A DNA stretch of 64,000 nt from Clostridia bacterium (lineage in GTDB: Bacteria; Bacillota; Clostridia; Oscillospirales; CAG-272): the NCBI GenBank assembly GCA_017465885.1, contig JAFTVG010000011.1, positions 75,276 through 139,275 of the forward strand, read 5' to 3'. Positions 25,920-48,434 of this stretch are shown in pieces. Every line of letters starts with the position of its first letter. The first letter of the stretch is position 1. A program made the translations under genes and the position numbers. Under the pieces are notes generated by a model that saw only the letters and a program-made list of their open reading frames with translations, was not told the origin of the DNA and ran no database searches.

Positions 25920-25941
25920 GAAAACACAAAATAAAACCAAA

Positions 25942-26037
25942 ACAGAGTAAGCTTTTTTGCGTAAAGTGCCGTGGGGACGGGGAGTTGCCCGACGGACGAA
26001 GGCTATGCCGCGGTAAAAAGGCTGCATCCCGCTGTTG
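25942..26037 (+). ncRNA. THF (tetrahydrofolate) riboswitch
   Basis: ACAGAGUAAG..GCGUAAAGUG..ACGAAGGC..GCCGCGGU..GCAUCCCGCUGU matches, block by block, the conserved THF-riboswitch core as I recall it (AGAGUAG..GCGUUAAGUG..ACGAAGC..GCGCGGUG..GCAUCCGCUC). It lies upstream of a folate-type ECF S component. ACCTCC (26057-26062) can pair with the SD GGAGGT (26090-26095). Confidence 0.8.
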
Positions 26038-26101: not shown

Positions 26102-26719
26102 ATGAAAAAAAACAATCAAAACACCCCTATCACCCGTTCTTCAAGAGAAAAAACAAGATACGCCTTGAAGCTTCTGTCTGCCTGCGCGCTGATGACCGCC
26201 CTTTCGGTGGTGCTTGACGGCTTTCTTGCCATCCCCGTGGGGGGCGGGATCAAGTTCACCTTCGGCTTCCTGCCCCCTGCCATCATCGGTATGCTCTACG
26301 GGCCTCTGCCCTCGGCGCTGGTCTTCGGGATTGCCGATCTGATCGCCGTTTTCACGGGGCTGTCCTTCGGTCCCTTCCATCCCGGATTTACCTTTTGCAA
26401 CATCCTGATGGGACTCTGCTTCGGGCTGCTCCTGCATCCCGATCCCCTGCCCTTTTTTAAGAAGAAGCTTCTCCCCTCCCATCCGCGGCTTCGCCTGACG
26501 ATCGGTGTGATCGTCCCCTCGCTTTTCAACAATTTGGTCTGCGGACTGCTTCTAAACACCTGGTGGGTGAGTATGATCTATGGCTCCAAGACCTATTTCG
26601 GCTGGTTTTTATACCGCCTGCCCCAATATGCAGTGATGATCCCCGTTTACGTCATCCTGCTCTTTACCCTTGCAAAGATTGCCCCCACCCTTCGAAGGAT
26701 GGGCTTTGGCAAGGCTTGA
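26102..26719 (+). CDS. folT: Folate-family ECF transporter S component
   Basis: 205-aa membrane protein with about 6 TM helices and an S-component-like pattern, directly controlled by a THF riboswitch. Confidence 0.7.
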   Translation: MKKNNQNTPITRSSREKTRYALKLLSACALMTALSVVLDGFLAIPVGGGIKFTFGFLPPAIIGMLYGPLPSALVFGIADLIAVFTGLSFGPFHPGFTFCNILMGLCFGLLLHPDPLPFFKKKLLPSHPRLRLTIGVIVPSLFNNLVCGLLLNTWWVSMIYGSKTYFGWFLYRLPQYAVMIPVYVILLFTLAKIAPTLRRMGFGKA

Positions 26720-34986: not shown

Positions 34987-35040
34987 ACACAAGCGCCCAA
35001 GGAACGCTTGCGAAAATCGCTCGATCCGAAGGAGCAACGT

Positions 35041-35117
35041 GGCGGAATAGCTCAGCTGGCTAGAGCAATCGGTTCATACCCGGTAGGTCGTGGGTTCAAG
35101 TCCAACTTCCGCTACCA
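35041..35117 (+). tRNA. tRNA-Met (anticodon CAU, elongator-like), CCA encoded
   Basis: Acceptor GGCGGAA/TTCCGCT (G1-U72). Anticodon arm ATCGG-TTCATAC-CCGGT resembles Firmicute elongator tRNA-Met. The T stem has one G-A mismatch. Confidence 0.8.
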
Positions 35118-35119
35118 TT

Positions 35120-35194
35120 GGCCCGTTGGTCAAGAGGTTAAGACACCGCCCTTTCACGGCAGTAACATGGGTTCGATTCCCGTACGGGTCACCA
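35120..35194 (+). tRNA. tRNA-Glu (anticodon UUC), CCA encoded
   Basis: Close to the Bacillus tRNA-Glu sequence as I recall it (GGCCCGUUGGUCAAG.GGUUAAGACACCGCCCUUUCACGGC.GUAAC). There is one C-A mismatch in the anticodon stem. Confidence 0.85.
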
Positions 35195-35199
35195 AAAAA

Positions 35200-35238
35200 G
35201 ATAACATCCGAACTTTTAAGTTCGGATGTTATCTTTTT
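35200..35238 (+). terminator. Rho-independent terminator after tRNA-Glu
   Basis: 14-bp stem GATAACATCCGAAC/GTTCGGATGTTATC followed by TTTTT. Confidence 0.85.
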
Positions 35239-35240
35239 AT

Positions 35241-35403
35241 CCAAGCCGCAGGCTTGGTATGGAATCACGCGTCAGCGTGTATGGAATCGCCTCAGGCGCA
35301 TGGCATCACCGAAGGTGCATTTTCTGCGGCTTGATTACATACGCGACTGCGTCGCAATTCCATTCCGCAACGAGTTGCGGATTCCATACACGCCTACGGC
35401 GTG
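35241..35403 (+). other. Array 1 of seven mini-hairpins interleaved with inverted 8-9-mer words, immediately 5' of a four-helix-bundle gene
   Basis: Hairpins lie at 35241-57, 35266-79, 35288-98, 35307-17, 35343-55, 35365-80 and 35390-402. The words TATGGAAT (35258, 35280) are mirrored by AATTCCATT (35356) and ATTCCATAC (35381), which could form nested long-range stems. Confidence 0.8.
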
Positions 35404-35427
35404 ATTTGGATGCGAAAGGAGAATGAT

Positions 35428-35781
35428 ATGGCAAAGAATTTATTGCTTGAATATTCCGAAAAATTGGCTTGCGAAATTGCAGCGCTTTGCAACGAGCACA
35501 AAATAGACTCCAATACAGCATATCAAATCAAAAAATCATCATCAAGTGTTTTCGCCAACATTTCCGAAGCTCAATATCCTCAAAGTCTTGCCGATATGCT
35601 ATCTAAGTTTGAGATTGCACGCAAGGAATGTATCGAAACAGAAAGCTGGCTCAAATTGATTTTTTCGTCAGAATGCATTGACGAAGAAACCTTTAAGAAA
35701 TACCGCAATCTCTGTGGAAGAATTCGCAGGATGTTAACATCTTCTTGCATTACAATTGAAAACAAATTAAAGCAAGGTTGA
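35428..35781 (+). CDS. Four-helix-bundle protein (23S rRNA intervening-sequence protein / Avd-like family)
   Basis: 117 aa. RBS aaaggag. The family pattern ...SSSSVFANISEAQ...F..KFEIARKECIETESWLKLI... is present. Terminator CAAGGTT-gaaa-AACCTTG plus a T-run lies at 35771-35797. Confidence 0.75.
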   Translation: MAKNLLLEYSEKLACEIAALCNEHKIDSNTAYQIKKSSSSVFANISEAQYPQSLADMLSKFEIARKECIETESWLKLIFSSECIDEETFKKYRNLCGRIRRMLTSSCITIENKLKQG

Positions 35782-35799
35782 AAAACCTTGCTTTTTTAG

Positions 35800-35935
35800 T
35801 GGGTTCGGGCTTCTGCCCGATTCTGTCCCAGCGTGAGCGCAGGGACGGTGCGAGGTGGGCGCCGCCATTTGGCGGTGGACATCCACGCGCATGCTTGCCC
35901 TAGACGCAAGCGTCTGGGATTTCTATTTTTAATAG
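35800..35935 (+). other. GC-rich cluster of short hairpins in an AT-rich context (possible small structured RNA or element remnant)
   Basis: TCGGGC-ttct-GCCCGA, GTCCC...GGGAC, GCCGCC-attt-GGCGGT, GTGGA-ca-TCCAC and CCCTAGACGC..GCGTCTGGG, followed by a T-rich tract. Confidence 0.35.
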
Positions 35936-36005
35936 ATTTTTCACTCTTGAATAAACATCATCGGAGGTGCTAAGTTGAATCAATAACAACTAATCCGTTT
36001 CGGTA

Positions 36006-36017
36006 TTATTCCCATTC
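36006..36017. repeat. Degenerate att-core copy (TTATTCCCATTC)
   Basis: 11 of 12 nt identical to the guaA stop-region repeat. It lies exactly 113 bp from the first arm-type heptamer, the same spacing as in the intact element. Confidence 0.55.
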
Positions 36018-36118
36018 TTTTTTGGAAATCTTCTTTGGCTTACTTATATCCTAAATAATATCCCAACCGGCGGTTTTGAGCCCGTTTTTCCACTCATTAT
36101 TTTATTTTTCAAAATTTT

Positions 36119-36137
36119 TGTTGCAGAAAATGTTGCA
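36119..36137. promoter_or_regulatory. Paired arm-type repeats of element A, left end (TGTTGCA x2)
   Basis: TGTTGCAgaaaaTGTTGCA. Confidence 0.45.
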
Positions 36138-36173
36138 AAATCGCTTGTGGGATAGTGCCGAGTGGCTTAAGAG

Positions 36174-37475
36174 TTACGGCCTCACCATTCGAACCGTGTG
36201 CTCTGTTTGTTTTGTTTTTACCAACCCAAGTTTATCGCAAATATGAAGTAGTTCCTTGTTTAATACAGGAACATCAATATAAGTTTGTTTTCCGGCTATT
36301 GATAGCACGTACTCAAGAAGACGAGTACCAAATCCATTACGCTGATACTTCCCCTCAATGTATAGATTATCTATATGTCCGTTATGTACCGTAACGATTC
36401 CGATTTCTCTTCCAAAAGATATGCTATACAGTTTTCCACCGCTTGAAATGACTTTGTTGATTTTTTCTGCAATGATTTTTTCTTCCGTGATGTATCTTGC
36501 CTCGTTTTCTTCTCTGGACAAACTGTAATCAAACCTTCCGTATCGATTTACATATCGGCAGATATGCTCAACTTGTTCAGTAGTGCCCGAAAACTCTCCA
36601 ATTATAATTTGGGTTCCCATAGCAGCCACAATCTGCGAGTCGGGATTTGACCATGGTTTGTTGATTCCCCAAAAGATTGAATTATTGGAGTTCGTATCCA
36701 AACCTGAGAGCAGGTCTTTGCGATTACATATTACTTTATAATTTCTACGCTTGAAATAAAACATATTGCTCTCACAAGTAAAGATAGAACTTATCCTTTG
36801 TCCTTGATGTATCAATGCGTCTTTCAACGACAGCAAATCTACATCATTCGGAACGGTGTCATAAATACCGTCAAATAAACGGAAACAAGCCCAATAATCC
36901 TTAACTTCCGGTACTATGCTTGATGTCCAACTTGCATAACAATTCACCAATTGCATCAACACATATTTTCCGTCAAAATTATGAAAATCTTCTTCAGAAA
37001 TCGGTTTTGATTTTTGTTCTGTATATGGTTTTCCTACTGTCTGCAACTGAACAGCAATGATATCTCCGTCATCAAAAATTCGTTCTGTGTGCACATTCGG
37101 CTTAATTTTCTTCTTTGGTAGTTGCGGTGATAGTAGTTTTTCTTTGAACTCGGCAAGTTTCTTTTTTCTGGAATCCAAAGTCTTTTGACCGGCTTCTTGC
37201 CACAACGCCAAACCAAAACCGCTATCAATCATTTCAAGTGCTTTGTTCCTTACAGAATCAGTTAAAATCCCTTTCTTCCACATAAAATCAGCGAGCGAAT
37301 AAATATAGTTGCACCATTCTTCTTCGTCTGATTCATCAAACATTTCTGACCTGATATAGTTATCAATCCGTTGCAACGCTTCTTCTACATCAAACTTATA
37401 GAAGGCGGCGGTATATTCAATATATAAATCTTTTGCAGTATCATTTCCTGTGATACTGGTATTCCAAGTTCCCAT
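36174..37475 (-). CDS. Fusion protein: DUF4259-like N-terminus plus an unknown middle region plus a C-terminal GNAT acetyltransferase fold
   Basis: Strong RBS aggaggt. The N-terminus MGTWNTSITGNDTAKD resembles the DUF4259 start (MGTWGxGxFDNDxAxD). The C-terminus IDNLYIEGKYQRNGFGTRLLEYV matches the GNAT motif A (Q/RxxGxG). Confidence 0.55.
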   Translation of the reverse strand: MGTWNTSITGNDTAKDLYIEYTAAFYKFDVEEALQRIDNYIRSEMFDESDEEEWCNYIYSLADFMWKKGILTDSVRNKALEMIDSGFGLALWQEAGQKTLDSRKKKLAEFKEKLLSPQLPKKKIKPNVHTERIFDDGDIIAVQLQTVGKPYTEQKSKPISEEDFHNFDGKYVLMQLVNCYASWTSSIVPEVKDYWACFRLFDGIYDTVPNDVDLLSLKDALIHQGQRISSIFTCESNMFYFKRRNYKVICNRKDLLSGLDTNSNNSIFWGINKPWSNPDSQIVAAMGTQIIIGEFSGTTEQVEHICRYVNRYGRFDYSLSREENEARYITEEKIIAEKINKVISSGGKLYSISFGREIGIVTVHNGHIDNLYIEGKYQRNGFGTRLLEYVLSIAGKQTYIDVPVLNKELLHICDKLGLVKTKQTEHTVRMVRP

Positions 37476-37539
37476 ACGTTACCTCCTATTTACTTAAAAG
37501 CCACTTGCAACCATTCCTCTTCACGCTTTTTATATTGAG

Positions 37540-37557
37540 TGTTGCAAAAGTGTTGCA
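37540..37557. promoter_or_regulatory. Paired arm-type repeats of element A, right end (TGTTGCA x2, 11-bp spacing)
   Basis: TGTTGCAaaagTGTTGCA. Confidence 0.45.
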
Positions 37558-37569
37558 GCGCGTTTTTCG

Positions 37570-37986
37570 TCAATTGCAGAAATGCCCGAAAGCCCTTTGT
37601 TTCCAAGGGTTTTCGGGCACTTGTACGCCGGTTAATTGTTTTGATTTTATAGTTGTAACAGTCGAAACTAACATTCTGCGAAGCTCAATACACGCACTTT
37701 GCATTTTATTAAACTCATTTTCACTAATCGAATTAGTTTCATAAAGAAGCTCAAGCCAGTATTCGCTCTCGTTACATTCTTTTAGTGCTATCTCAAACTT
37801 TGAAATAAAATCCTTTGTACCTTGCGCGTACTGCGCCTCGTGGACGTTTGCGCCAACCGACGTGCCACTTTTAAGCAACTAATTGATTAAAACGCCTTCT
37901 ATTCTGCTTTCTCTTAACCGTCTGCAAAGAAAAACTATTTCTTTGGCAAATGCTTTTGATTTATCTCTCAAGATACTGTCTGCCAT
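37570..37986 (-). pseudogene. Four-helix-bundle protein gene interrupted by an in-frame TAG and extended at its 3' end into the element-A terminus
   Basis: ATG at 37986 with RBS aaaggagaaa. It reads MADSILRDKSKAFAKEIVFLCRRLRESRIEGVLIN-TAG(37881-37879)-LLKSGTSVGANVHEAQ..., where family members usually have Gln. The C-terminus runs about 20 aa past the family end, through the 37584-37618 hairpin. Confidence 0.65.
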
Positions 37987-38002
37987 AGTTTTTCTCCTTT
38001 TT

Positions 38003-38156
38003 AGTTATGAGTTTAAAGTTATGAGAGTGCTTCGCACTCGTTATGATATGATTGCCTCGTTCTTTCAACTGCACCGAAGGTGCATCATAACTTGACGAAG
38101 CCAACCATAACTCATAACTTGCCCAAAGGGCAATCATAGTTCATTTTGCTTCGCAA
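38003..38156 (-). other. Array 2 of mini-hairpins interleaved with inverted words, immediately 5' of the second four-helix-bundle gene
   Basis: Hairpins lie at 38026-38, 38071-83, 38120-32 and 38146-56. The words AGTTATGAG (38003, 38017) and CGTTATGAT (38039) are mirrored by ATCATAACT (38084) and CTCATAACT (38111). It shares CACCGAAGGTGCAT with array 1. Confidence 0.8.
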
Positions 38157-38158
38157 AA

Positions 38159-38170
38159 TTATTCCCACTC
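38159..38170. repeat. att core, distal copy (TTATTCCCACTC)
   Basis: Identical 12-mer to 47151-47162, which is the stop codon plus the last three codons of guaA. Confidence 0.7.
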
Positions 38171-38271
38171 AAGATTGATTATTTTATCAATGGTTTTTAT
38201 GGGGCTATTTAGTCTATTTATTCTCATTTTTTGCGCCTAAAATCTCACAAAAATTTGGCTCTCAAAAATAT

Positions 38272-38289
38272 TGGTACGATTTTGGTACG
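38272..38289. promoter_or_regulatory. Paired arm-type repeats of element B, left end (TGGTACG x2, 11-bp spacing)
   Basis: TGGTACGattttGGTACGc, 113 bp from the att core. Confidence 0.55.
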
Positions 38290-38435
38290 CCATAAAAAAG
38301 CTGTTTTTCGTGTGTTTCACGGGGTAGTTTATATTTTCAACCTGCTATCCGAACAACATCAAAAAACGGCGTTTTTTTGCCCTTTTTGAGAGGGATAATT
38401 GCGAGGTTTCCATACTCTGTCCGAGTAATCATTTT

Positions 38436-39353
38436 TTATTGCTCTAACAAGTATATTTTACCCTCTGCTCTTAAAACGGAAATATCATAATAACGATATA
38501 TCGCTTCGATCATTTCTCCGTCTTTCTCTGCTTCACCAATGCCGGAACTCCATACACGCAGAAAACTATATTCTTTTGTTTCGGAGTTATACTGACCTAA
38601 AAAATCATAGGTGGTAGTTTCCTTAACGCTTTCTTCACCGTCCGCATATATCAAATCCGTATAGGCATATTGCTTTTGGCTTGTATCAACTTGAATACCG
38701 TAATTGTTATACTTACCCGACAATTCAAAGGCAACGCTTTGCTCTTTTTCTATGTCAATGAGAGAATAGTATTCTTCTTTAAGAGAGATACCCCACCAAA
38801 CAGCAAGATCATCAATTTCCCCAAAGGCATTCTCTTTCCAATAGGGGTACTCTATCACATCAAAATAATCGTTCCAATTATCAAGCGTTATAGTAATTTC
38901 TTTGGAATTGGTATGTGTTGTCTGCGTATCGTCTGTGTTTACGCCGCCATTATCAACATATTCTTTGTCTTTGGCAACAAAATCAGCGGGTCTGTAGTAT
39001 ATCTCTGTATCATACTTTAAGACGGTCTTTCCGTTTTCGTCTGCAATTTCCAAAACACCGCTTACGCCGTTTTTATCAAGCGTAAAAATGAATTGATTTA
39101 GATCGGCAATATATTCCCATTTTGCGCTTTCACCCTTATAGATACAAGTGCCGTCCTCTTGCAAAGTGATTGTTGCAACTTGATATGTTATCTCATTATC
39201 AAAACGAGATTTAAGGGAGTTTGCTTTCCATTCTCCCATATAATCCGAAATAGATTGTTTATCGTTGTTATTCTCTTTTTGATTATCATTATTACAAGCG
39301 GAAAATGAAAACAACATTACAACCGCTAATAACAGTACAAATAATTTTTTCAT
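38436..39353 (-). CDS. Lipoprotein of unknown function (305 aa), element cargo
   Basis: Lipobox FSFSAC and RBS aggagc. Confidence 0.6.
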   Translation of the reverse strand: MKKLFVLLLAVVMLFSFSACNNDNQKENNNDKQSISDYMGEWKANSLKSRFDNEITYQVATITLQEDGTCIYKGESAKWEYIADLNQFIFTLDKNGVSGVLEIADENGKTVLKYDTEIYYRPADFVAKDKEYVDNGGVNTDDTQTTHTNSKEITITLDNWNDYFDVIEYPYWKENAFGEIDDLAVWWGISLKEEYYSLIDIEKEQSVAFELSGKYNNYGIQVDTSQKQYAYTDLIYADGEESVKETTTYDFLGQYNSETKEYSFLRVWSSGIGEAEKDGEMIEAIYRYYDISVLRAEGKIYLLEQ

Positions 39354-39538
39354 TTGTGCCGCTCCTACTGACGATTTATTTTAAGTAATTATAACATAAA
39401 ATTGTGAATAAAGCAACTGACAGAAACAATTATACCTACAATCAGCAACTTTTTTCGTTTTTTCACGAAAAGCAACGAAATAAATCACCAATGTTTCTAT
39501 GGGAAACATCACTCTTGGTAAAATTATATAAAGAGGTG

Positions 39539-39841
39539 ATGTTTATGATTGTATGCTTGTCTGTGCGCTTGAAAGAATTGCGCATAAATAAAAATCTAAC
39601 ACAAGCGCAAGTTGCTCAATATGTGGGTGTTACCCGTGCCGTTATAAGTGCATACGAAACGGATATACGGCAACCGTCTTATGATATACTGATACGCCTT
39701 GCGCTGTTATACGGCGTTACAACCGACTATCTATTATGTATTGATAGTAAACGGTATTTGGATATATCGGGTCTATCGGAGCGGGAAGCCGCCGCAGTAT
39801 GCGAAATGGTTAATGTATTTATGGAAAACAAAAAGAAATGA
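39539..39841 (+). CDS. XRE-family HTH transcriptional regulator
   Basis: RBS aaagaggtg. HTH_3 pattern LTQAQVAQYVGVTRAVISAYETD. The palindrome ATGTTTC-tatgg-GAAACAT lies upstream (39490-39508). Confidence 0.7.
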   Translation: MFMIVCLSVRLKELRINKNLTQAQVAQYVGVTRAVISAYETDIRQPSYDILIRLALLYGVTTDYLLCIDSKRYLDISGLSEREAAAVCEMVNVFMENKKK

Positions 39842-39852
39842 GGTACATATCT

Positions 39853-40542
39853 ATGAAAAAAAGAATATTATCACTCTTAATGGCTGTATGCCTTATGACA
39901 ACGCTTGTCAGCGTTTGCTCCGTGTCCGCTTCTGCTGCGGAAGGTGATGTTTATGTTTATGCCTACAACGCAAGAGCAAAAGCCGGAGAAACGGTTGAAA
40001 TCCCCTTTTATATCAATTCTGAGGAAGAATTTGCTTGCTTGACCTTTACTCCCGATTTTGATTTTACCGCTTTAGAGTTGGTTAATGTTGAGTGTGGCAT
40101 ACCGGGCGGTAGCTTTATATACAACGAAAATCCCACCAACCCTAAATTTATTTGGTATCACCCTCAAAATATGGCTGTCGGACAAGAACCCGTTTTCACT
40201 TTAACCTTTGTTGTTAAAGAGGGAGCAAGAGAGGGCAAATATCCCGTTACGCTCCTTTTTAACGAAAACGATATTTGCGATGAAAACGGCTCCCGTATTC
40301 CCCTGCAAGTGGAGGCGGGGGAAATCACAATATTTCGCTATCTTCTCGCCGATGTCAATAACGATCTTTCTGTTGATAGTGCTGATGTTGTTAAGCTTGC
40401 TCGTTATTTGGTTTATTTGGAAACGGAGATCAACACATACGGAGCAGATGTAAACAAGGATAGCAATGTTGATGGCAGGGACTTAATCAAACTTGCACGC
40501 CATATGGCAGGGGCAGAAATGATCGAGGGCGCAGGATATTAA
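39853..40542 (+). CDS. Secreted cohesin-dockerin protein (small adaptor scaffoldin-like)
   Basis: Signal peptide. A cohesin-like beta-sandwich pattern (AKAGETVEIPFYINS...FTLTFVVKEGAREGKYPVTLLF...GEITI) is followed by two dockerin Ca-binding repeats (DVNNDLSVDSADVVKLARYL / DVNKDSNVDGRDLIKLARHM). Confidence 0.7.
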   Translation: MKKRILSLLMAVCLMTTLVSVCSVSASAAEGDVYVYAYNARAKAGETVEIPFYINSEEEFACLTFTPDFDFTALELVNVECGIPGGSFIYNENPTNPKFIWYHPQNMAVGQEPVFTLTFVVKEGAREGKYPVTLLFNENDICDENGSRIPLQVEAGEITIFRYLLADVNNDLSVDSADVVKLARYLVYLETEINTYGADVNKDSNVDGRDLIKLARHMAGAEMIEGAGY

Positions 40543-40627
40543 CCGACTTTTCAAGCATACAATCAAATACATAATAGCAATAGACCGTCAGCAATGGCGG
40601 TCTATTTGCTTTGTTGAATAATAATAT

Positions 40628-41317
40628 TCAAAACTGCCCTTGCTCCAAAACAAGCTCTTGCTTGTACTTATAAAAACTGTTTCGGGATATTCCGGCAAGG
40701 CGTTGACATTCGGCGTTGTTTAGAGATCCGCCAAAATCAATTAAATGTATGCGGATAATCTCTTTTGCCGCTATGCTCTTTTTGGTGGTGAGCTTTGCGC
40801 CCTTTTGTTGTCCTATCTGCTTTCCGTTCAGCCGAGCGGTTATAATGCCCTCTTTGGTGCGTTGGTGTAGGTCTGTTACCTCTTTTTCCGCTTGCTCAAA
40901 TGCTATCCTTATTTGCTCTTTGGCTAATTCCATTAGATATTTATTGATACCCTCTAAAATATAATCCACAGCCGTCCCCGTGAGCTTTACAGAGCTTGCT
41001 ACCGCCTTTTTATAGGTCTGTGTATTGATTTGCGGCTCTTTAAGGAAAACAAGCTCTACGCCCCTATTGTAAAGCTCTTGATATACCGCAAAGCCGTCAG
41101 CGGCGTTACGGGACATTCTTGACACAGAGTCAAAAACTATCATATCCCCCTCAACTACGATTTTTAGCAATTTATCAAAATTAGGGCGGGATAGTTTCGT
41201 ACCCGTAAACTCGTCTTGTAAAATGATCGCTTTAGGGTACGCCGTTTTTATATTTCGTATCTGTCTGTCAATGCTTTGTTTAGGCGTGGAAATTCGTGCA
41301 TATCCGTATATTGTCAT
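40628..41317 (-). CDS. Small serine recombinase (resolvase/invertase family)
   Basis: MTIYGYARISTPKQSIDRQ contains the catalytic Ser motif, and there is a C-terminal HTH. 229 aa. Confidence 0.85.
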   Translation of the reverse strand: MTIYGYARISTPKQSIDRQIRNIKTAYPKAIILQDEFTGTKLSRPNFDKLLKIVVEGDMIVFDSVSRMSRNAADGFAVYQELYNRGVELVFLKEPQINTQTYKKAVASSVKLTGTAVDYILEGINKYLMELAKEQIRIAFEQAEKEVTDLHQRTKEGIITARLNGKQIGQQKGAKLTTKKSIAAKEIIRIHLIDFGGSLNNAECQRLAGISRNSFYKYKQELVLEQGQF

Positions 41318-41361
41318 TGGTTATATTCCTTTCTGTGTTCAAATTTAACGACCGTCTGATT

Positions 41362-41441
41362 TGGTACGCTGTGATAAGGCAAAAACGCCTTGCGCCGTCT
41401 GCGCTTTTGGTACAATCGTGAAATAGGTCAGTTTTGGTACT
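41362..41441. promoter_or_regulatory. Three TTTGGTAC(G/A/T) repeats upstream of the serine recombinase gene (res-like or extra arm sites)
   Basis: TGGTACG at 41362, TGGTACA at 41408 and TGGTACT at 41435. This is the same heptamer family as at both element ends. Confidence 0.45.
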
Positions 41442-41485
41442 GTGTGAGAGGGGCAGGGACTAACCCTGCCGCCCCTCGTTGACTT

Positions 41486-41602
41486 TTATATAATCCGCTT
41501 GTATGCAAGAATAAAGAATATCACCCCTGCAACTATCGGCAAAACTGCGGACAATATCAAAAGTAAGAAAATCACAATGCAAGTTTCTGTATCGTTCAGC
41601 AT
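41486..41602 (-). CDS. 38-aa hydrophobic peptide, translationally coupled to the SprT-like gene (not in the ORF track)
   Basis: The ATG lies 6 nt after the SprT-like stop, and RBS agagggg lies inside the upstream gene's end. Sequence MLNDTETCIVIFLLLILSAVLPIVAGVIFFILAYKRII has one TM plus a basic tail. Confidence 0.4.
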   Translation of the reverse strand: MLNDTETCIVIFLLLILSAVLPIVAGVIFFILAYKRII

Positions 41603-41608
41603 TGCACA

Positions 41609-42259
41609 TCACCCCTCTATCATTTTCACGGCGCAATCACCGCATACAATGTTTACTGTGCGCGTTGCTCTAACTATCGTATGACAGCAAGGGCAGATAT
41701 AACGGCGGCTATTGCCTTTTGCGGTTGTGGTGATTTGAATACCACCGCTTGCGGAATGTGCGCCAACACCAACAGACATATATCCTATATCATTTCGGCA
41801 CATTTCTATTTCCCGTAGCTCGTTATGGTTTAACAGCCATTCAAGCAGGGTATCGTCCGGCTCTGTATGCGACCACCCGTATTTTTCTGTTTTGGTGCAT
41901 ATCAACCCGTGATCTCTACAAGCGGTTGCAAATGCTTTGTTGTGATATGTTCCGTTCCTTGATGTGTCTTGAATGTTCAGTATGGTATCATTGTACATAT
42001 GTACCATTTCGTGAAGCAATGAAGCGGTGATAGCTTCAAGCGGTCTGTTTAGTGTTCCGCTTGCTATATTGATTTCACGCTTTTGTGTATCTCCGGCACT
42101 CCAAGCATCCCACGGCGTATAGTGTGCGTATGATCGGCTTGACGGCGTTACAGTTATAACGGGCGTGTCAAGTGCATTGTTGAACATATCGGCGTTTAAT
42201 GCCCTAAACATTTTCTCTAATTGGTTGACAAGTCTTGACATATTGGTTACTTGTTTCAT
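41609..42259 (-). CDS. SprT-like zinc metalloprotease domain protein with a C-terminal zinc ribbon
   Basis: HEMVH (HExxH) in the context SLLHEMVHMYN. The C-terminus has CPCCH...CGDC. Confidence 0.7.
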   Translation of the reverse strand: MKQVTNMSRLVNQLEKMFRALNADMFNNALDTPVITVTPSSRSYAHYTPWDAWSAGDTQKREINIASGTLNRPLEAITASLLHEMVHMYNDTILNIQDTSRNGTYHNKAFATACRDHGLICTKTEKYGWSHTEPDDTLLEWLLNHNELREIEMCRNDIGYMSVGVGAHSASGGIQITTTAKGNSRRYICPCCHTIVRATRTVNIVCGDCAVKMIEG

Positions 42260-42401
42260 AGTTATTTACTCCCTTTCAATTATATTGATATTGATTTTAA
42301 GGGAGCGGGCGTGTATAATATTATTGTCCCGCTCCCCTGCGGTTGTGGGTCAAGTGTCTTGTATGATTGCTTTGGTCGGCGGTTTATACAAGGCACTTTC
42401 T

Positions 42402-42677
42402 TTATGCAATACTAAAGCGGCGGCTTGCCGTCTGTTTGGTGTACTGCTTGTACATATCGGCGTGTTCTTTCTTAAATGATGTAGTATCAAATCTGTTACT
42501 TAACACAGAAGTCCAACGGCAAATAAAACGCCCTGCTTCTAATTCTTCCGTGTCCCTTGCAAGCATTTCGGCTTTGATTTCGTCCCTTAATGCTTCGGCT
42601 TCTGCTCTGGCTTCTTCTGCAAGTGTTTCCCACTCTTGCAACTTTGCGATCTTGCTTTCCATTTCGTGTGTTGACAT
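42402..42677 (-). CDS. Small coiled-coil hypothetical protein (91 aa)
   Basis: RBS aagggga. Charged helical N-terminus. Function unknown. Confidence 0.5.
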   Translation of the reverse strand: MSTHEMESKIAKLQEWETLAEEARAEAEALRDEIKAEMLARDTEELEAGRFICRWTSVLSNRFDTTSFKKEHADMYKQYTKQTASRRFSIA

Positions 42678-42744
42678 TGTTATTGTCCCCTTTGTTAATA
42701 TATTCGGCGTGGGCGTTTGCCCTTGCCGTGATTATAGTATAGCA

Positions 42745-42822
42745 CATTGCGCAATGGTCGTCAATAGGCACATTGCACAATGTTCTTTTTGACGATTTGT
42801 TTATTTTGTACATTGCACAATG
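42745..42822. promoter_or_regulatory. Three CATTGCnCAATG operator palindromes overlapping divergent promoters
   Basis: CATTGCGCAATG at 42745, CATTGCACAATG at 42771 and at 42811. The plus promoter is TTGCAC (42813), 17-nt spacer, TGcTATAAT (42833-42841). The minus promoter is TTGACG, 17-nt spacer, TATACT, with operator 1 in its spacer. Confidence 0.6.
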
Positions 42823-42867
42823 TTCCAAAGTGTGCTATAATGATGTATATAATTAGGGGGTGCTATT

Positions 42868-43107
42868 ATGGCTTATAAAGACAGATCAACCGCAATCAAA
42901 TACAATAACGAATACAACAAGCAAGCGTATGACCGTATTAACTTGACCGTCCCCAAAGGAAAAAAGGAAAGCATACAGACGGCGGCGCAGGCGAACGGCG
43001 AAAGCGTGAACGCATTTATTAACAGATTGATTGATACCGAGCTTGAACGCATAGAGCAAGGCGAGGGTATTTCCCATATTTCACGCCGGACGGACGATAA
43101 AAAATAA
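42868..43107 (+). CDS. Ribbon-helix-helix (CopG/Arc-like) DNA-binding protein
   Basis: 79 aa. RINLTVPKGKKESIQTAAQANGESVNAFINRLI fits a beta-strand plus two helices RHH pattern. Candidate repressor for the adjacent operators. Confidence 0.55.
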   Translation: MAYKDRSTAIKYNNEYNKQAYDRINLTVPKGKKESIQTAAQANGESVNAFINRLIDTELERIEQGEGISHISRRTDDKK

Positions 43108-43255
43108 GCAAGTTGTTTGATCTTTCTCACACCGGCATTTTTGAAAATTAACATTCAAAACGAAACGGCATAAAAAAAGAGCGGCTTGCGCCGCTCCTAA
43201 AAACACATATCTATATAGCAAAACGGACGATTGATTTCGTCCGTTATTTTTTTGC

Positions 43256-43543
43256 TTATATTAGATATTCCTCTGTATCTGTACCAACCGTTTCAAGCAT
43301 AATCTTACCTCCGAGCCGAAAGGCGTGAGCAAATATTTCACACTCTATAACGCCGTTCATTTCATTTAGGCAATCCTCGTATTTTTCAAGTATTTCCTTT
43401 TGCTTGTCGGTCATTGTGGCGGTGAGTTCATCACGATTACGCCCCATAAGATCAAGCAAGTGTTTAATCCGCTTGTTGCCGTCCGTGCATTGTTCTTGTG
43501 GGTGTACATTGCCGTACCATAATTCTTCAAGTATTCCTCTCAT
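43256..43543 (-). CDS. Small conserved hypothetical protein (95 aa), of a kind common on clostridial mobile elements
   Basis: RBS aaaaggg. The start ILEELWYGNVHPQEQ recalls a recurrent MGE-borne family. Function unknown. Confidence 0.5.
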   Translation of the reverse strand: MRGILEELWYGNVHPQEQCTDGNKRIKHLLDLMGRNRDELTATMTDKQKEILEKYEDCLNEMNGVIECEIFAHAFRLGGKIMLETVGTDTEEYLI

Positions 43544-43585
43544 AATATGCGCCCTTTTCTGTTTTTCTTTACTCCATTATACCAC

Positions 43586-43763
43586 GCCGAAAATGCGTTG
43601 CACACTTCAATTTTTGATTTAGGCGCACTATGAAAATACGGAGATTGGCGTAATTTCAAGGGTGCTGTAAGCAACGCTTAATAGTGTATATAGAAAGTAC
43701 GCATTTTTCGGCACTTCGATTTAGACACATACCGAAAGGGCGTATTTTTCGCACTTTTATAGG
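43586..43763. repeat. Iteron-like direct and inverted repeats upstream of the putative replication/DNA-binding genes
   Basis: ACGCATTTTTCGGCACTTCGATTTAGACACA (43699-43729) has a partial direct copy GCGTATTTTTCGCACTT (43740-43756), an inverted partial copy GCCGAAAATGCGT (43586-43598), and the related CACTTCAATTTTTGATTTAGGCGCA (43603-43627). Confidence 0.4.
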
Positions 43764-43828
43764 GGTATGTCAATTTTTTCTTATGGTGTATAAGAAAACG
43801 CTATCACGAAAGAAAGGAGAACAAGAGT

Positions 43829-44023
43829 ATGGATTTACTTATGACCTACACAAACAGTATTCATATCACCGAAACGGACAAGGGCATTGAAATAGTGATT
43901 GACAAGCCGTCCGAGATTTACGATTGGCTACAAGAGATCAAAGCGTATTATGAAACCGATCTGTTTTCTGTTCTATATGACTTAATCAGAACGGAACGAG
44001 AGAACGAGCGGGACGAGCTTTGA
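43829..44023 (+). CDS. Small hypothetical protein (64 aa)
   Basis: RBS gaaaggaga. Acidic C-terminus. Confidence 0.45.
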   Translation: MDLLMTYTNSIHITETDKGIEIVIDKPSEIYDWLQEIKAYYETDLFSVLYDLIRTERENERDEL

Positions 44024-44131
44024 TTTATCCATTTATGAAAGGAGCGTGATAAACGCAAAAACGCCCATAACGGCAGGGACAAACGCCGTTGAATTAAAGG
44101 GAAACAATCAAATAGAAAAGGCAAATAAGCA

Positions 44132-44728
44132 ATGGGTAATATTTATATATACCACACATCACCAAACCAAAGAAGCGTTATAACGCATAAAACGCTGTCC
44201 GATAAAGAACACCCATACGGGATATGTAATATAGCGGCTACGCTAACCGCCGCAAAAGAGCTAACCGACAGAGCATATAAACTGTATATCCGAATGTCAT
44301 TACACCAAGACGGGCATACCTACGCTTTAAGTCCCGTTGAGATTAACAATAGTATTGGTATGACAGATAAGCGTTACAGAGAAGCGGTAAAAGAATTGAT
44401 TGATAAAGGTTATTTGGTGCAACACAAAGACCATAAAAGCGTGTATATCTTTTACGAAGCTCCGGCTATTGACAATGTTTCAGTATTGCCAAAAGAGATA
44501 GGCTATCTACCCCAAACGGAAAGTACAACCGTCCATAATGACTATATAGAACAGCCGATATGGGAAGTCAAACCGTCTGTTTCGGGGGGAGAAATAATAG
44601 ATAATATTACATCTCAAATACATAATAATACTGATACTACATTGCCGGATTTAAGTTTTATAACCAACAAAGGAAAAAGCAATAATGACTTGTTTCCAAG
44701 TCTGCAAAATGAAGATTTACCATTTTAA
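44132..44728 (+). CDS. Putative winged-helix DNA-binding / replication-initiator-like protein
   Basis: The segment SPVEINNSIGMTDKRYREAVKELIDKGYL looks like a wHTH. It lies downstream of the iteron-like repeats. The assignment is weak. Confidence 0.35.
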   Translation: MGNIYIYHTSPNQRSVITHKTLSDKEHPYGICNIAATLTAAKELTDRAYKLYIRMSLHQDGHTYALSPVEINNSIGMTDKRYREAVKELIDKGYLVQHKDHKSVYIFYEAPAIDNVSVLPKEIGYLPQTESTTVHNDYIEQPIWEVKPSVSGGEIIDNITSQIHNNTDTTLPDLSFITNKGKSNNDLFPSLQNEDLPF

Positions 44729-44840
44729 CACCGTTGCGGAACTATGAGATAATTCCGCTGTTTTTGGTAAATGAATTGTGGGGTGAGCGTTTTAGCTTGC
44801 CCCATTTTGATATTTACAGAATAGAAAGGAACACCACTTT

Positions 44841-45599
44841 ATGAGCATAACAGAATTAGTCCGCAATTACGCTATAAGCGTTAATGATAACGATATGTAC
44901 ATTACGGTATTGCGAAGCGGCAAAACATACTACACCAACTATGACAAAGGTTTTTATGAACTGATGAAAAGCGGCATTTTCACGGGAGCGGGAACAAACG
45001 GCAATAGCAAAGGTGATTATTTGAAATTCACTTGTACCCATACCGATTTTGACCCGTATTTTCATCACATTGTTTTTTGCTATTACTATCGAGGATTGCG
45101 CAAGGACAACTACATTGATGTTTTACGCCAATTCAGCAACGAATTATCAAAAAGCAAATTGAATGTAGATCATCTGCAAGACGGGATTTACAACAACAGA
45201 AAATGGAATTTATCTCTTATGCCTAAAGCTGATAATATGCAAAAAAGGCACTTTGACAAGCGTTTTAAGAATATCTTTGACATAGTGTCTGCTTATGACG
45301 GAGAGGGATATAGAGTACAGCTTACATACCTAAACAAAGGCATACGAGCGGTAAGGTATTATTGTGATACGCCTAATGACTTGAACGCATTATATCGTTA
45401 CCTAAAGGCGCATAAATGGGAACTGCGCAAGGCAAAAGCGGGTGTGCAGCTATCCGATAGTTTTTATTCTTCCTCTGGTGATTTTGAAAATTATTATTCA
45501 AACACATTTCCGCAACTTGTACCCAATGAGGAAATACACGGTATGCAACGGCATTTAGTGAAAATGCGGAAAAATGCGTTTTCTCAATACAGAGGATAA
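44841..45599 (+). CDS. HNH-like nuclease domain protein
   Basis: LNVDHLQDGIYNNRKWNLSLMPKADNMQK fits the H-N-(H/N) pattern of HNH_3/AP2-associated endonucleases. Confidence 0.5.
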   Translation: MSITELVRNYAISVNDNDMYITVLRSGKTYYTNYDKGFYELMKSGIFTGAGTNGNSKGDYLKFTCTHTDFDPYFHHIVFCYYYRGLRKDNYIDVLRQFSNELSKSKLNVDHLQDGIYNNRKWNLSLMPKADNMQKRHFDKRFKNIFDIVSAYDGEGYRVQLTYLNKGIRAVRYYCDTPNDLNALYRYLKAHKWELRKAKAGVQLSDSFYSSSGDFENYYSNTFPQLVPNEEIHGMQRHLVKMRKNAFSQYRG

Positions 45600-45701
45600 A
45601 ATAACTGTTTTATAAACAAAATACATCGTCATTTTGGCTTTTACAGCCGTTTACGGCTCAAATCCTTGTTGTTAGCAGGAGAATGACCCAAAGGAGCAAA
45701 A

Positions 45702-45890
45702 ATGACTAATAGACCCAATAACGAAGAATTATTTTACACCGTTGACGATATTATAAACATACTCAATGTTTCAAGATCAACGGCATATAGAGAAATCAAA
45801 AAATTAAACGAAGAGCTGAAAAAGCAAGGTTATATCACCATTTGCGGTAAAGTGCCTATAAAGTTTTTTCGGGAGCGGTGGTACTGTTGA
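45702..45890 (+). CDS. Excisionase-like HTH protein (Xis/MerR-type small DNA-binding protein)
   Basis: 62 aa. LFYTVDDIINILNVSRSTAYREIKKL. Lies immediately upstream of the integrase. Confidence 0.65.
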   Translation: MTNRPNNEELFYTVDDIINILNVSRSTAYREIKKLNEELKKQGYITICGKVPIKFFRERWYC

Positions 45891-45965
45891 CAAAGATTTT
45901 GAAGTGTGCAAACGCCACGCGAAATGGTAAAATTATTATATATGGATTAAAGGAATTGAAACACT

Positions 45966-47051
45966 ATGGCAGTACAAAAATACACCGCTAAAAACGGAAA
46001 ACAACTATGGTATTTTTCAGTTAGATACACCGATTGGACGGGTGAGCGGAAACGGAAAAAGCAAGAGGGATTTAAGACCCAAAGAGAAGCAAAAGAAGCA
46101 GAATCCGACTTTTTGAATAGCAAAAGGACGGATATTGACATTACTTTTGAAAATCTTGTAAAGGCGTATGTAGAGAACAGAAACGCCCGAATAGAGCAAA
46201 CTACTTTAGCAACCAAAGGGCATATGATACGGACAAAGATATTGCCCTACTTTGCTAAAATGCCTTTAAGCAAGATTGATACCGCTACCGTTATGAATTG
46301 GCAAACGGAGCTTATGAACTACCGCAACCCAAAGACAAATAAGCCGTATTCGCAAACATACCTACGGCAGATACACAATCAGTTATCAACGATCTTTAAC
46401 TTTGCAATTCGATATTACGGATTATCAAGAAATCCCGCCCAACTGTGCGGCAGTATGGGTAAACAGAACGCTGAAAAATTTGATTTTTGGACTTATGACG
46501 AATTTCAAAAGTTTATCCAAGCCGCAAAGGACGATATAAACGCTTATACAATATACAATCTGTTCTTTTATAGCGGTATGCGTATGGGTGAATTACTTGC
46601 CCTTACGCTGAATGATTTTGACTTTGATAAATGTACCGTATCAATCAACAAAAGTCTTGCCGTCATTGACGGTGAGCAGACAACAAAGAAAACCAAAACG
46701 GAAAAGAGTAAACGCATTGTTGCGTTGCCCGTTCCGATAATGGAAATGATAAAAGAATATGCAGGGCATTTGTACGAATACAACCCTGCAAACAGATTAT
46801 TTATATCAAGCAAAACATCACTACATAGAGATATGCGCAAGTATTGCGAGATCTCCGGCGTGCGCAAAATTAAAGTACACGAACTGCGCCACAGCCACGC
46901 AAGCCATTTAATTGAGTTAGGCGTTTCTCCGCTTTCGATAAGTGAGCGGTTAGGACACGAAGATATAAAAACAACGCTTAACACATATTCGCATTTGTAC
47001 CCAAACAAGCAAAGTGAGATAGCGGAAATCCTTACGGAATATGTGCTATGA
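45966..47051 (+). CDS. Tyrosine site-specific integrase with an N-terminal arm-binding (AP2-like) domain
   Basis: The N-terminus KNGKQLWYFSVRYTDWTGERKRKKQEGFKTQREAKEAE is typical of Tn916/phage Int arm-binding domains. The C-terminus has R...HELRHSHASHL...GHEDIKTTLNTYSH, containing the catalytic R-H-R-H/Y residues. Confidence 0.9.
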   Translation: MAVQKYTAKNGKQLWYFSVRYTDWTGERKRKKQEGFKTQREAKEAESDFLNSKRTDIDITFENLVKAYVENRNARIEQTTLATKGHMIRTKILPYFAKMPLSKIDTATVMNWQTELMNYRNPKTNKPYSQTYLRQIHNQLSTIFNFAIRYYGLSRNPAQLCGSMGKQNAEKFDFWTYDEFQKFIQAAKDDINAYTIYNLFFYSGMRMGELLALTLNDFDFDKCTVSINKSLAVIDGEQTTKKTKTEKSKRIVALPVPIMEMIKEYAGHLYEYNPANRLFISSKTSLHRDMRKYCEISGVRKIKVHELRHSHASHLIELGVSPLSISERLGHEDIKTTLNTYSHLYPNKQSEIAEILTEYVL

Positions 47052-47072
47052 TAGCGGGGTGATAGCGAATAA

Positions 47073-47090
47073 TGGTACGAATGTGGTACG
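47073..47090. promoter_or_regulatory. Paired arm-type repeats of element B, right end (TGGTACG x2, 11-bp spacing)
   Basis: TGGTACGaatgTGGTACG, about 60 bp from the att core. Confidence 0.55.
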
Positions 47091-47150
47091 CTGACAAAAC
47101 AAAAACGCCCGAAAACCCTGTATTTTCAAGGCTTTCGGGCATTATTTATT

Positions 47151-47162
47151 TTATTCCCACTC
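47151..47162. repeat. att core, guaA-proximal copy (TTATTCCCACTC)
   Basis: The reverse complement encodes E-W-E-stop of guaA. Identical to 38159-38170. Confidence 0.7.
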
Positions 47163-48158: not shown

Positions 48159-48239
48159 ACCTTTGATCCTCCATATCTTCTTTTCATTTCGGGAGCGTAC
48201 TCCCTTACTCTTATCAAATTTTGCTCTTTTATGGAAAAT

Positions 48240-48268
48240 ATCATAGCACAAATCGAAAAAACAGTCAA
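48240..48268 (-). promoter_or_regulatory. Sigma-A promoter of guaA
   Basis: Minus strand: TTGACT (48268-48263), 17-nt spacer, TATGAT (48245-48240). Confidence 0.6.
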
Positions 48269-48434
48269 GAGCACTTTGCGAATTTTTTTGATTTTTTTCG
48301 CACACCGCCCTCTTTTTTTCTACCCGATCGTTCTTTTTTCCCCTGCCCAAAAATTACAATAAATAATCCTTTCTCCTTTATCCCACACTAAAAGCGTGCC
48401 GACCACGCTCGGACTATCAAACAAGGAGAAAATC

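Follow-up and report, generated by a model that had tools for sequence, protein, structure and literature searches.

Mini-hairpin arrays upstream of two four-helix-bundle genes in a Clostridia genome: candidate members of a modular extragenic palindromic repeat family

Two hairpin arrays at one locus

We analyzed a 64-kb window of a Clostridia bacterium genome (contig JAFTVG010000011.1, positions 75,276 to 139,275; coordinates below are those of the window) in which two open reading frames (ORFs) for four-helix-bundle (4HB) proteins, here 4HB1 and 4HB2, each lie behind a dense array of mini-hairpins and short repeated words. A first-pass annotation had reported these arrays, each before a PF05635/TIGR02436 ORF, and our reading of the sequence agrees with it almost base for base. 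To our knowledge, no function is known for TIGR02436 four-helix-bundle proteins outside the Avd protein of diversity-generating retroelements (DGRs). The comparison of related loci presented here suggests that the arrays belong to a modular family of extragenic palindromic repeats. The first array and its flanks comprise:

35120-35194, plus strand: tRNA-Glu(UUC), the last of a tRNA-Met/tRNA-Glu pair and the upstream anchor of array 1 (ARAGORN, Rfam)
35200-35233, plus strand: intrinsic terminator with a 16-bp perfect stem, its T-run continuing into the array start TTTTATCC (repeat search)
35237-35406, plus strand: array 1 (reading of the sequence 35100-38300 and repeat search)
35237-35333, plus strand: left half of array 1, with TTATCC, hairpin 1 and stem A:A' around three word+hairpin units
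35241-57, plus strand: hairpin 1, CCAAGCC-GCA-GGCTTGG
35258-65, plus strand: word W1, TATGGAAT
35266-79, plus strand: hairpin 2
35280-87, plus strand: word W2, TATGGAAT
35288-98, plus strand: hairpin 3
35299-306, plus strand: word W3, CATGGCAT
35307-17, plus strand: hairpin 4, CACCGAAGGTG
35334-35406, plus strand: right half of array 1, with inverse units whose loops are T..C on the plus strand, that is, G..A on the opposite strand
35334-42, plus strand: degenerate word, ATTACATAC
35343-55, plus strand: hairpin 5
35356-64, plus strand: word, AATTCCATT
35365-80, plus strand: hairpin 6
35381-89, plus strand: word, ATTCCATAC
35390-402, plus strand: hairpin 7, then GATT
35428-35781, plus strand: 4HB1 gene, 117 aa, PF05635/TIGR02436 (profile match, PDB 2RLD)
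35769-35794, plus strand: terminator hairpin overlapping the 4HB1 stop codon (conserved in orthologues)

The seven mini-hairpins of array 1 are perfect, with stems of 4-7 bp and loops of 2-4 nt. The long-range complements reported earlier are present (35257-66 with 35380-89, 10/10; 35281-90 with 35354-63, 9/10), and two further features had been overlooked: the terminator at 35200-33, which directly follows tRNA-Glu and precedes the array, and a perfect 10-bp long-range pair between 35242-51 (A) and 35324-33 (A'). In structure prediction, the left half folds as DNA into a cloverleaf, with stem A:A' around three hairpins. The array ends 23 nt before the ATG of 4HB1, where there is a Shine-Dalgarno (SD) sequence and no promoter in between, and the order tRNA-terminator-array-4HB recurs in loci related to array 1. 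The second array comprises:

38003-38159, minus strand: array 2, word family GTTATGA/TCATAAC (sequence reading, repeat search)
38003-38138, minus strand: array 2 units (in gene orientation), with hairpin 1 TTGCCCTTTGGGCAA, then word+hairpin units
38071-83, minus strand: array 2 central hairpin
38047-56 with 38129-38, minus strand: array 2 long-range pair, then inverse units reaching the SD sequence
37633-37986, minus strand: 4HB2 pseudogene (in-frame TAG and lost native stop)

Array 2 follows the same plan with another word, as the first-pass annotation had it. GTTATGA occurs three times and then CATAACT three times, with mini-hairpins in between; the stems 38040-47/38084-91 and 38016-25/38111-20 are perfect; and the central CACCGAAGGTGCAT is common to both arrays on the plus strand (35307-20 and 38073-86). 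Only an SD sequence lies in the ~10 nt between the end of the array and the 4HB2 start codon. That 4HB2 is a pseudogene had been missed: an in-frame TAG (37879-81) stands where all orthologues have CAG (Gln), and the native TAA stop now reads TTA (37633-35). The array upstream of the pseudogene is nevertheless still intact.

Both ORFs score above the curated family cut-offs over their full length (4HB1: PF05635 67.6 bits against a cut-off of 33.8, TIGR02436 71.3 bits against 24; 4HB2: 69.5 and 97.3 bits, respectively), and 4HB1 matches the structure PDB 2RLD with E = 6e-13. The 4HB sequences contain no catalytic motif, and PADLOC defence models gave no match for the proteins.

Both arrays fold better on both strands than dinucleotide shuffles (z = -4.5, -4.6, -6.2 and -5.1; 200 shuffles per array and strand), with 0 of 200 shuffles folding as well in each array/strand combination. 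A simple detector of hairpin clusters was dropped because of its noise (93 clusters in 20 shuffles) and replaced by a generic search for hairpins joined by similar linkers; with this final detector, array 1 was the sole comparable match in the 64 kb, against 0.1 in each shuffled window. The array words cluster at the two arrays and nowhere else in the window. Rfam 15 returned no match on either array at the gathering threshold or at E <= 10, in keeping with the earlier statement that no described RNA class has this layout, and TRF found no tandem repeat on either. Viral contigs, a phage collection and a plasmid collection held no array or 4HB relatives, and a literature search combining the protein family with hairpin, cassette or tRNA terms yielded no description of such arrays.

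Anatomy of the array family

The anatomy of the family was deduced from about 130 distinct arrays. One and the same layout is seen in 80 species-level loci and 84 metagenome matches. The 5' part consists of an intrinsic terminator, TTTTATCCAAKCC, hairpin 1, three units of word W plus hairpin and a short T-rich linker; the 3' part consists of A' (which pairs with A, the 5' arm and loop of hairpin 1), 2-6 units of word W' plus hairpin and a final GATT. The element has a fixed start, TTATCCAA, just after the terminator. Each unit is an 8-nt word with a mini-hairpin of 4-8 bp, and stem A:A' measures 10-11 bp.

The first-pass annotation had proposed that the architecture is kept by compensatory change, and the family bears this out. 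Pairing is more than 95% Watson-Crick in its distinct hairpins (133 from left halves, 172 from right halves), and the words W and W' change together by lineage: GGA/TCC (TATGGAAT/ATTCCATA), GTA/TAC (TATGTAAT/ATTACATA), GTC/GAC (TATGTCAT/ATGACATA) and ATC/GAT (TATATCAT/ATGATATA). A second word class (class II) has GTTATGA/TCATAAC and GTTATAT/ATATCACT. The hairpin stems are structurally constrained and free in sequence, with only pairing, G..A loops and words kept. Stem A:A' is 99.5% paired in a 40-sequence alignment, with three covarying positions (G-C/U-A, C-G/A-U and C-G/U-A) and its G-U wobbles on the top (sense) strand; no column-slid control equals it, and RNAalifold arrives at it independently. 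In L078 (L numbers denote the loci compared), from which the three inner units are absent, A:A' appears as a simple hairpin.

Several readings of the array were dropped, namely a CsrA-type GGA sponge, a DnaA box (TTATCCAA vs TTATCCACA), Xer/dif-like half-sites and a small ORF, because they apply to one word class only or because hairpins change in length by steps other than three nucleotides or a multiple of it.

Arrays of the same grammar with further word classes (GATGATATAC, GTGAAAT) also lie downstream of 4HB genes (L001 4437-4548, L018 3499-3605, L024 2406-2509, L073 1537-1628, L031 3503-3616), so that some 4HB genes are flanked on both sides; some of these downstream arrays are built of same-orientation units alone.

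Word pairing and strand asymmetry

The nested long-range stems proposed in the first-pass annotation lack position-specific covariation. Complementarity is real, as all W' copies of an array complement the W1 type (80% match), but the pairing is not position-specific and failed a matching test: W3 is a conserved odd word with a GGC or GTC core that W'1 matches in only 11% of arrays, and anything from 2 to 6 W' units face an invariable three of W. On the simpler reading, one kind of unit would build both halves and stand inverted in the right one.

Loop composition supports the inverse-unit reading. Left-half loops are G..A on the top strand (GNA or GNNA, often of the C-GAA-G / GCGAAGC type), and right-half loops are T..C on the top strand and thus G..A on the bottom strand. 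The tolerated internal mismatches point the same way, with GT:AC counts of 7:2 in the left half and 6:13 in the right. As the favored loop type is impossible in both halves of one RNA, we infer a DNA-level fold on both strands, which the small wobble counts keep at the rank of a suggestion. The loop polarity of the halves is reversed in class II arrays, including array 2, relative to class I, and in L177 the array halves are permuted.

Terminators, tRNA genes and promoters

An intrinsic terminator immediately upstream, usually that of a tRNA gene, is the strongest positional rule of the arrays. Of 121 arrays, 102 have a perfect hairpin that ends at most 10 nt before TTATCC. An intact tRNA gene of one of 14 isoacceptor types lies 26-43 nt before the start of 62 out of 107 arrays, and 20 more follow a remnant resembling a tRNA 3' end. 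The same terminator sequence is found before arrays behind different genes, and hence repeat and terminator travel together. Ending exactly at the terminator+array start, a conserved sequence of ~45 nt (...TCAGTTTTCAGGCACATTTAATTCGTGCCATTAGGTTCAAATTACCC) recurs in L101, L110, L124, L146, L154, L158 and L165; it may be the 3' end of a stable RNA or of another repeat.

Strict adjacency to terminators is also what one would expect of a miniature inverted-repeat transposable element (MITE) made of fused transposon ends, in which the words would be subterminal transposase sites and the terminator T-tract the site of insertion. The pseudo-dyad arrangement of three units against 2-6 inverse units would fit such an element, as would the constant TTTAT at the left and the TTTAT-like bases past the final GATT in many copies. 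We nevertheless regard this origin as very improbable: since the terminator travels with the array, it lies inside the repeat and is not its target; we saw neither clean terminal inverted repeats nor a target duplication that recurs from copy to copy; known transposon ends offer no counterpart to the variable hairpins that separate the words; and an all-against-all comparison found no empty-site/filled-site pair.

At the other end of the array, 34 of 75 copies of the GTA lineage are followed by TTGAWY-N13-15-TGNTANNNT, a sigma-A-type consensus promoter with an extended -10 element that occurs in 2% of random control windows. Its -35 box is the TTGATT of the array's last unit, which places the array upstream of the predicted transcription start in those copies. 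The promoter block TTTTATGCTATAMT follows 4HB-linked and unlinked arrays alike, as well as a class-II-type array in L085 that precedes a non-4HB gene. In the window, neither strand of 35000-38400 gave a promoter-like site in a sigma-70 consensus scan, a depletion relative to the 8.0 +/- 2.7 sites in shuffles, so that the 4HB transcription starts cannot be placed by such a scan.

One-sided linkage to 4HB genes

Orthologues of 4HB1 with 72-98% identity occur in 80 species-level metagenome-assembled genomes (MAGs) of Oscillospiraceae, Acutalibacteraceae and Christensenellaceae, and rumen and gut metagenomes contain thousands of close homologues; the orthologues of 4HB2 are 80-96% identical. For these two subfamilies, the earlier statement that an array precedes each 4HB gene proves true almost throughout. 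An array lies upstream in 69 of the 72 species-level 4HB1 loci with enough upstream sequence, the three exceptions being L012, whose array is split by an IS1182-like element, L078, which is without the left half, and L079, which has a variant-word array. Every 4HB2 locus examined lies just downstream of guaA, behind an array of the GTTATGA/TCATAAC type.

The reverse relation is different. For a gene-independent sample, we scanned a metagenome collection with the array 5' start as the pattern and obtained 84 matches, whose downstream genes were identified by eye from sequence. Among the 65 arrays with at least 650 bp downstream, 17 (26%) precede a 4HB gene (GGA lineage, 5/14; GTA lineage, 11/44), and the other 48 (74%) precede unrelated genes, housekeeping genes included: an RluA-type pseudouridine synthase, cyclophilin, FeoA, a ClC channel, a glycosyltransferase, XRE regulators, GNAT enzymes, lipoproteins and small membrane proteins. 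Remnants of a 4HB gene follow the array in two cases without an intact one (L030 and L097). With only 17 of 65 independent arrays before a 4HB gene, the earlier proposal that the arrays are a device of this protein family does not hold. The linkage is one-sided, with P(array given 4HB) about 1 and P(4HB given array) about 0.25. It is far above chance; 4HB genes are the arrays' commonest neighbor, not their sole one.

These counts bear on whether the array is a structured RNA 5' leader that controls translation or stability of the 4HB mRNA, with nested word helices holding the hairpin stack. The short distances of 23 and ~10 nt to the start codons, bridged by the SD sequence alone, the lack of a sigma-70-like site between array and gene or anywhere in 35000-38400, the strong folding of the sense strand with the A:A' wobbles on it, and the presence of an array at 96-100% of 4HB1 and 4HB2 orthologues all speak for a leader. 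Leaders and riboswitches are associated with one gene family, whereas 48 of 65 arrays precede unrelated genes. Moreover, the GTA lineage, 4HB-linked copies included, has its consensus promoter (34 of 75 copies) between array and gene, a strong terminator stands directly upstream of the arrays, the right half is optimized on the antisense strand, the word-word pairs have neither position-specific covariation nor matched copy numbers, and array 2 is intact despite its pseudogene. We therefore consider a leader quite unlikely as a general account.

The one-sidedness of the linkage suggests that 4HB proteins depend on an array in cis or make use of it. A rival account takes its model from REPINs, mobile sequences built from repetitive extragenic palindromic (REP) sequences, and their REP-associated tyrosine transposases (RAYTs): the arrays would be self-propagating repeats and the 4HB protein, an Avd-like nucleic-acid binder, the dedicated partner encoded beside master copies. 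The asymmetry itself (P ~1 vs ~0.25), the 4HB genes with arrays on both sides (L001, L018, L024, L030, L073), near-identical terminator+array modules behind different upstream genes and frequent contig breaks at arrays are all consistent with it, and 4HB ORFs of PF05635/TIGR02436 are known as the sole ORF embedded in selfish 23S rRNA intervening sequences (PMC4990558). The account is nonetheless doubtful, as 4HB proteins are without a catalytic motif and no nuclease or transposase is linked to them, several word types occur in one genome without a matching 4HB paralogue (e.g., ATC-type arrays), copy number appears low, and a host function is suggested by the retention of arrays at orthologous positions in species whose 4HB proteins are 72-98% identical.

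Many database homologues of 4HB1 are annotated at 139-190 aa. The reading frame has apparently been run on through the stop-free array by gene callers, and the overlong annotations would then be a systematic error.

Junctions, rearrangements and mobility

The first-pass annotation had also suggested that the array and its ORF form a discrete mobile cassette at junctions of accreted elements. Support for this comes from L024, L030, L067 and L118 and is anecdotal. In L024, L118 and L067, modules of tRNA 3' fragment, terminator and array are repeated around units of 0.6-2.5 kb, the array+4HB unit of L024 measuring 0.6 kb; a 42-bp terminator brackets units in L027 and L030, and the second array of L030 retains the first 25 nt of a 4HB gene. 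Immediately past a second array farther downstream, L001 and L002 part. Duplicated terminator/array modules were found, array truncations occur at word boundaries, and in L012 an IS1182-like element with a DDE transposase (1080-2957, 516 aa) sits inside the array at such a boundary. Many contigs break at arrays.

Such patterns would be expected if the arrays were attC-like sites, folded as single-stranded DNA (ssDNA), for the capture and loss of cassettes by a recombinase acting in trans, with the 4HB protein as an accessory factor. Like attC, the arrays keep structure while sequence varies and contain reverse-complementary 8-mers; they lie at integration hot spots (tRNA 3' ends and the guaA 3' end); and the repeated modules, the bracketing 42-bp terminators and the divergence of L001 from L002 exactly after an array add to the likeness. 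We find the proposal unlikely. A second tRNA 3' end within ~3 kb, as expected of an integrated element, accompanies only 3 of 62 tRNA-linked arrays; long loci hold one array each and no cassette trains; and tblastn with the window's tyrosine integrase and serine recombinase gave no match in 780 kb of array-bearing loci. Unequal crossover between arrays and between repeated 42-bp terminators best accounts for the differences among L027, L030 and L159, the 4HB start retained in the second L030 array being in line with it. An all-against-all search for insertion/deletion pairs returned one insertion sequence (IS) insertion, two rearrangements explained by such crossover and no empty site. Several downstream genes are housekeeping genes, and the words do not fit the attC R'/R'' consensus. 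Overall, the loci compared gave no evidence that arrays are recombination sites, and we attribute their coincidence with junctions to their being repeats at integration hot spots. As for copy number per genome, one 120-kb contig carries two exact-pattern array matches and the 64-kb window carries two arrays.

In L011, a GC-rich, hairpin-dense and gene-less insert of ~280 bp (3490-3768) is bracketed by a duplicated 23-nt tRNA-Glu 3' end and may be a miniature non-autonomous integrative element.

The guaA junction and other features of the window

The region upstream of array 2 has been split by an integration:

38143-59, minus strand: hairpin ATTTTGCGAAGCAAAAT
38159-70, minus strand: displaced guaA 3' end fragment TTATTCCCACTC
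38171-47150, no strand assigned: 9-kb integrative element splitting guaA from array 2 (tyrosine integrase, direct repeats, low GC)

The element, which is outside the array family, sits in the 3' end of guaA (47151-48350). Its genes include those for an arm-binding tyrosine integrase (45966-47051), an XRE regulator, a cohesin/dockerin protein and a small serine recombinase (40628-41317). The 12-bp direct repeats TTATTCCCACTC (38159-70 and 47151-62) flank it, and each end bears two copies of the arm-type repeat TGGTACG (38272-89 and 47073-90). GC content is low from ~35.9 to 47 kb of the window. When the element is taken out, the order becomes guaA - hairpin - array 2 - 4HB2, which parallels tRNA-Glu - terminator - array 1 - 4HB1. 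Orthologous loci have an intact guaA directly at the position of the window's fragment, and the plan of array 2 is kept downstream of guaA in all 4HB2 orthologue loci examined; 38143-38170 is the original guaA-hairpin-array 2-4HB2 junction.

Directly past the 4HB1 terminator lies a GC-rich block of ~130 bp (35795-35925) with four further hairpins. It starts with TAGTGGGTTCGGGCTTCTGCCC, resembling the T-arm and 3' part of another tRNA, and is kept in L012, L015, L017 and L025; related loci diverge right after it. Between the two convergent 4HB cassettes, the minus strand encodes a 433-aa protein (36174-37475) with a C-terminal GNAT domain and an N-terminal part that looks immunity-protein-like by eye only; tblastn found no homologue of it in the 780 kb of array-bearing loci. 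Upstream of an ORF at 26102-26719 lies a THF riboswitch (25941-26036, 88 bits).

Interpretation

We favor the reading that arrays 1 and 2 are members of a modular extragenic palindromic repeat family acting as a DNA-level boundary module, to which we assign a probability of about 0.5. The two arrays would be copies, one from each of two word classes, of a family that is widespread in gut and rumen Oscillospirales (Oscillospiraceae, Acutalibacteraceae and Christensenellaceae MAGs) but has so far gone unannotated. Each array begins right after an intrinsic terminator, mostly that of the last tRNA of an operon (guaA in the case of array 2), and in one lineage its last unit provides the -35 box of a predicted outward sigma-A promoter. 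The array would work as folded DNA, in cruciforms or transient single strands on both strands, and not as one RNA; terminator, hairpin fence and promoter would together form a portable boundary between a heavily transcribed gene and the next transcription unit. The repeated words would make the array prone to gain and loss of units, rearrangement and IS insertion, and this instability would be why arrays coincide with junctions of variable DNA. The 4HB genes are the commonest residents beside the arrays and would have no riboregulator of their own.

Several points weigh against this reading. Insulation, cruciform extrusion and promoter activity are all deduced from sequence. The promoter pattern occurs in 1 of 49 arrays of the window's own GGA lineage, and array 1, which belongs to that lineage and ends so close to the ATG, may act as a leader. 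The wobble asymmetry is based on small counts (20 vs 8), and the opposite loop polarity of class II arrays, array 2 included, means that a simple fence facing incoming transcription misfits some copies. A single exact 5' pattern served to collect the metagenome sample, in which the GTA lineage predominates. Long loci usually hold a single array, so that scatter across whole genomes is at most a supposition.

A more far-reaching proposal is that 4HB proteins are dedicated partners of the arrays that bind folded ssDNA units of word and GNA hairpin, forming a new repeat/protein system analogous to REPIN-RAYT or attC-like; we hold this to be unlikely at present. Such a system, stationed at tRNA and guaA 3' ends together with the terminator+array module, would be either a non-enzymatic counterpart of REPIN-RAYT or a Gram-positive platform, attC-like in logic, that marks the accretion of foreign cassettes. 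By analogy, "4HB binds or uses arrays" may still be the most interesting reading left, and the interest of the arrays rises sharply if the 4HB link proves functional.

If our reading is correct, the arrays would be an unrecognized class of structured intergenic element in abundant gut and rumen Clostridia, one that may set transcription-unit boundaries, breaks metagenome assemblies at tRNA loci and causes false N-terminal extensions of 4HB proteins, which are then called at 139-180 aa. The near-obligatory array upstream of two TIGR02436 subfamilies would offer the first concrete ligand hypothesis for a very large protein family, and the constant 8-mers, covarying mini-hairpins and opposite-strand halves would provide a natural test of DNA- versus RNA-level structural selection.

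Comparison with known systems

Streptomyces telomeres and parvovirus inverted terminal repeats (ITRs) are multi-palindrome ssDNA folds with C-GNA-G mini-hairpins. The arrays resemble them in having a stem around small palindromes and GNA/GNNA loops closed by C:G (e.g., GCGAAGC). Unlike these termini, the arrays are internal to the chromosome and have no terminal protein or Rep system. The identical tandem repeats of ~36 nt in type III toxin-antitoxin loci (ToxI-like, with an endoRNase toxin) differ from the arrays, whose units vary in sequence.

Integron attC sites, such as Vibrio cholerae repeats (VCRs), share with the arrays a conserved fold with variable sequence, reverse-complementary boxes of 7-8 nt, a probable fold as ssDNA with strand asymmetry and a position between same-orientation genes. 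The arrays differ in being without IntI or an R''/R' consensus, TATGGAAT and GTTATGA misfitting R'' (RYYYAAC) and R' (GTTRRRY), and in lying singly at each locus, anchored to a terminator and upstream of promoter-bearing genes.

The protein side recalls 23S rRNA intervening sequences with a 4HB (S23p) ORF and DGR Avd, in which a small lone PF05635/TIGR02436 ORF stands in a structured context associated with stable RNA. In contrast to both, the array-linked 4HB genes lie outside rRNA, the ORF has no enclosing stem, the ORFs around them in the window include no reverse transcriptase (a GNAT-domain protein, an XRE regulator, a cohesin/dockerin protein, a resolvase and a SprT-like protein are found), and repeat searches near the 4HB genes found no template/variable repeat pair.

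With the BOX elements of Streptococcus pneumoniae (boxA-boxB(n)-boxC) and the Correia elements of Neisseria, the arrays have in common a modular intergenic structure with a variable number of internal modules, complementary outer parts and the capacity to supply promoters or terminators to neighbors. They show no sequence similarity to either, are built of 20-25 bp word+hairpin modules with non-conserved stems, carry a promoter in one lineage only and have no terminal inverted repeats or TA duplication.

The likeness is broadest to REP sequences and the bacterial interspersed mosaic elements (BIMEs) they form, and to REPINs. The arrays lie outside genes, where transcription units end, and are mosaics of short GC-rich palindromes in opposed orientations, with conserved motifs as linkers and a variable number of units; one has received an IS (L012), REP sequences being IS insertion targets (Tobes & Pareja 2006, as cited in PMC8040213). 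Unlike REP sequences, which keep the palindrome, the arrays keep the linkers and let the palindromes vary freely: their stems are hypervariable, with ~300 distinct hairpins. Instead of a RAYT (Y1 HUH), a search confined to the flanks of the arrays found only an unrelated DDE IS transposase. The fixed polar layout, the tie to tRNA terminators and the Gram-positive host also set them apart from the BIME/REP sequences of enterobacteria. The possibility, raised in the first-pass annotation, that the arrays are generic palindromes of this kind without linkage to 4HB genes is thus half right: the arrays are generic, yet their linkage is real and one-sided. By analogy, this linkage resembles the REP-RAYT relation and the embedding of 4HB ORFs in 23S intervening sequences. 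Distinctive for the family are its constant linkers with hypervariable stems, the stem-enclosed triple-hairpin half facing an inverse half, the strict adjacency to terminators, mostly of tRNA operons, and the outward promoter in one lineage. Our verdict is that the arrays form a new repeat family of the BIME/REP/BOX kind, unusual in its one-sided association with the TIGR02436 family.

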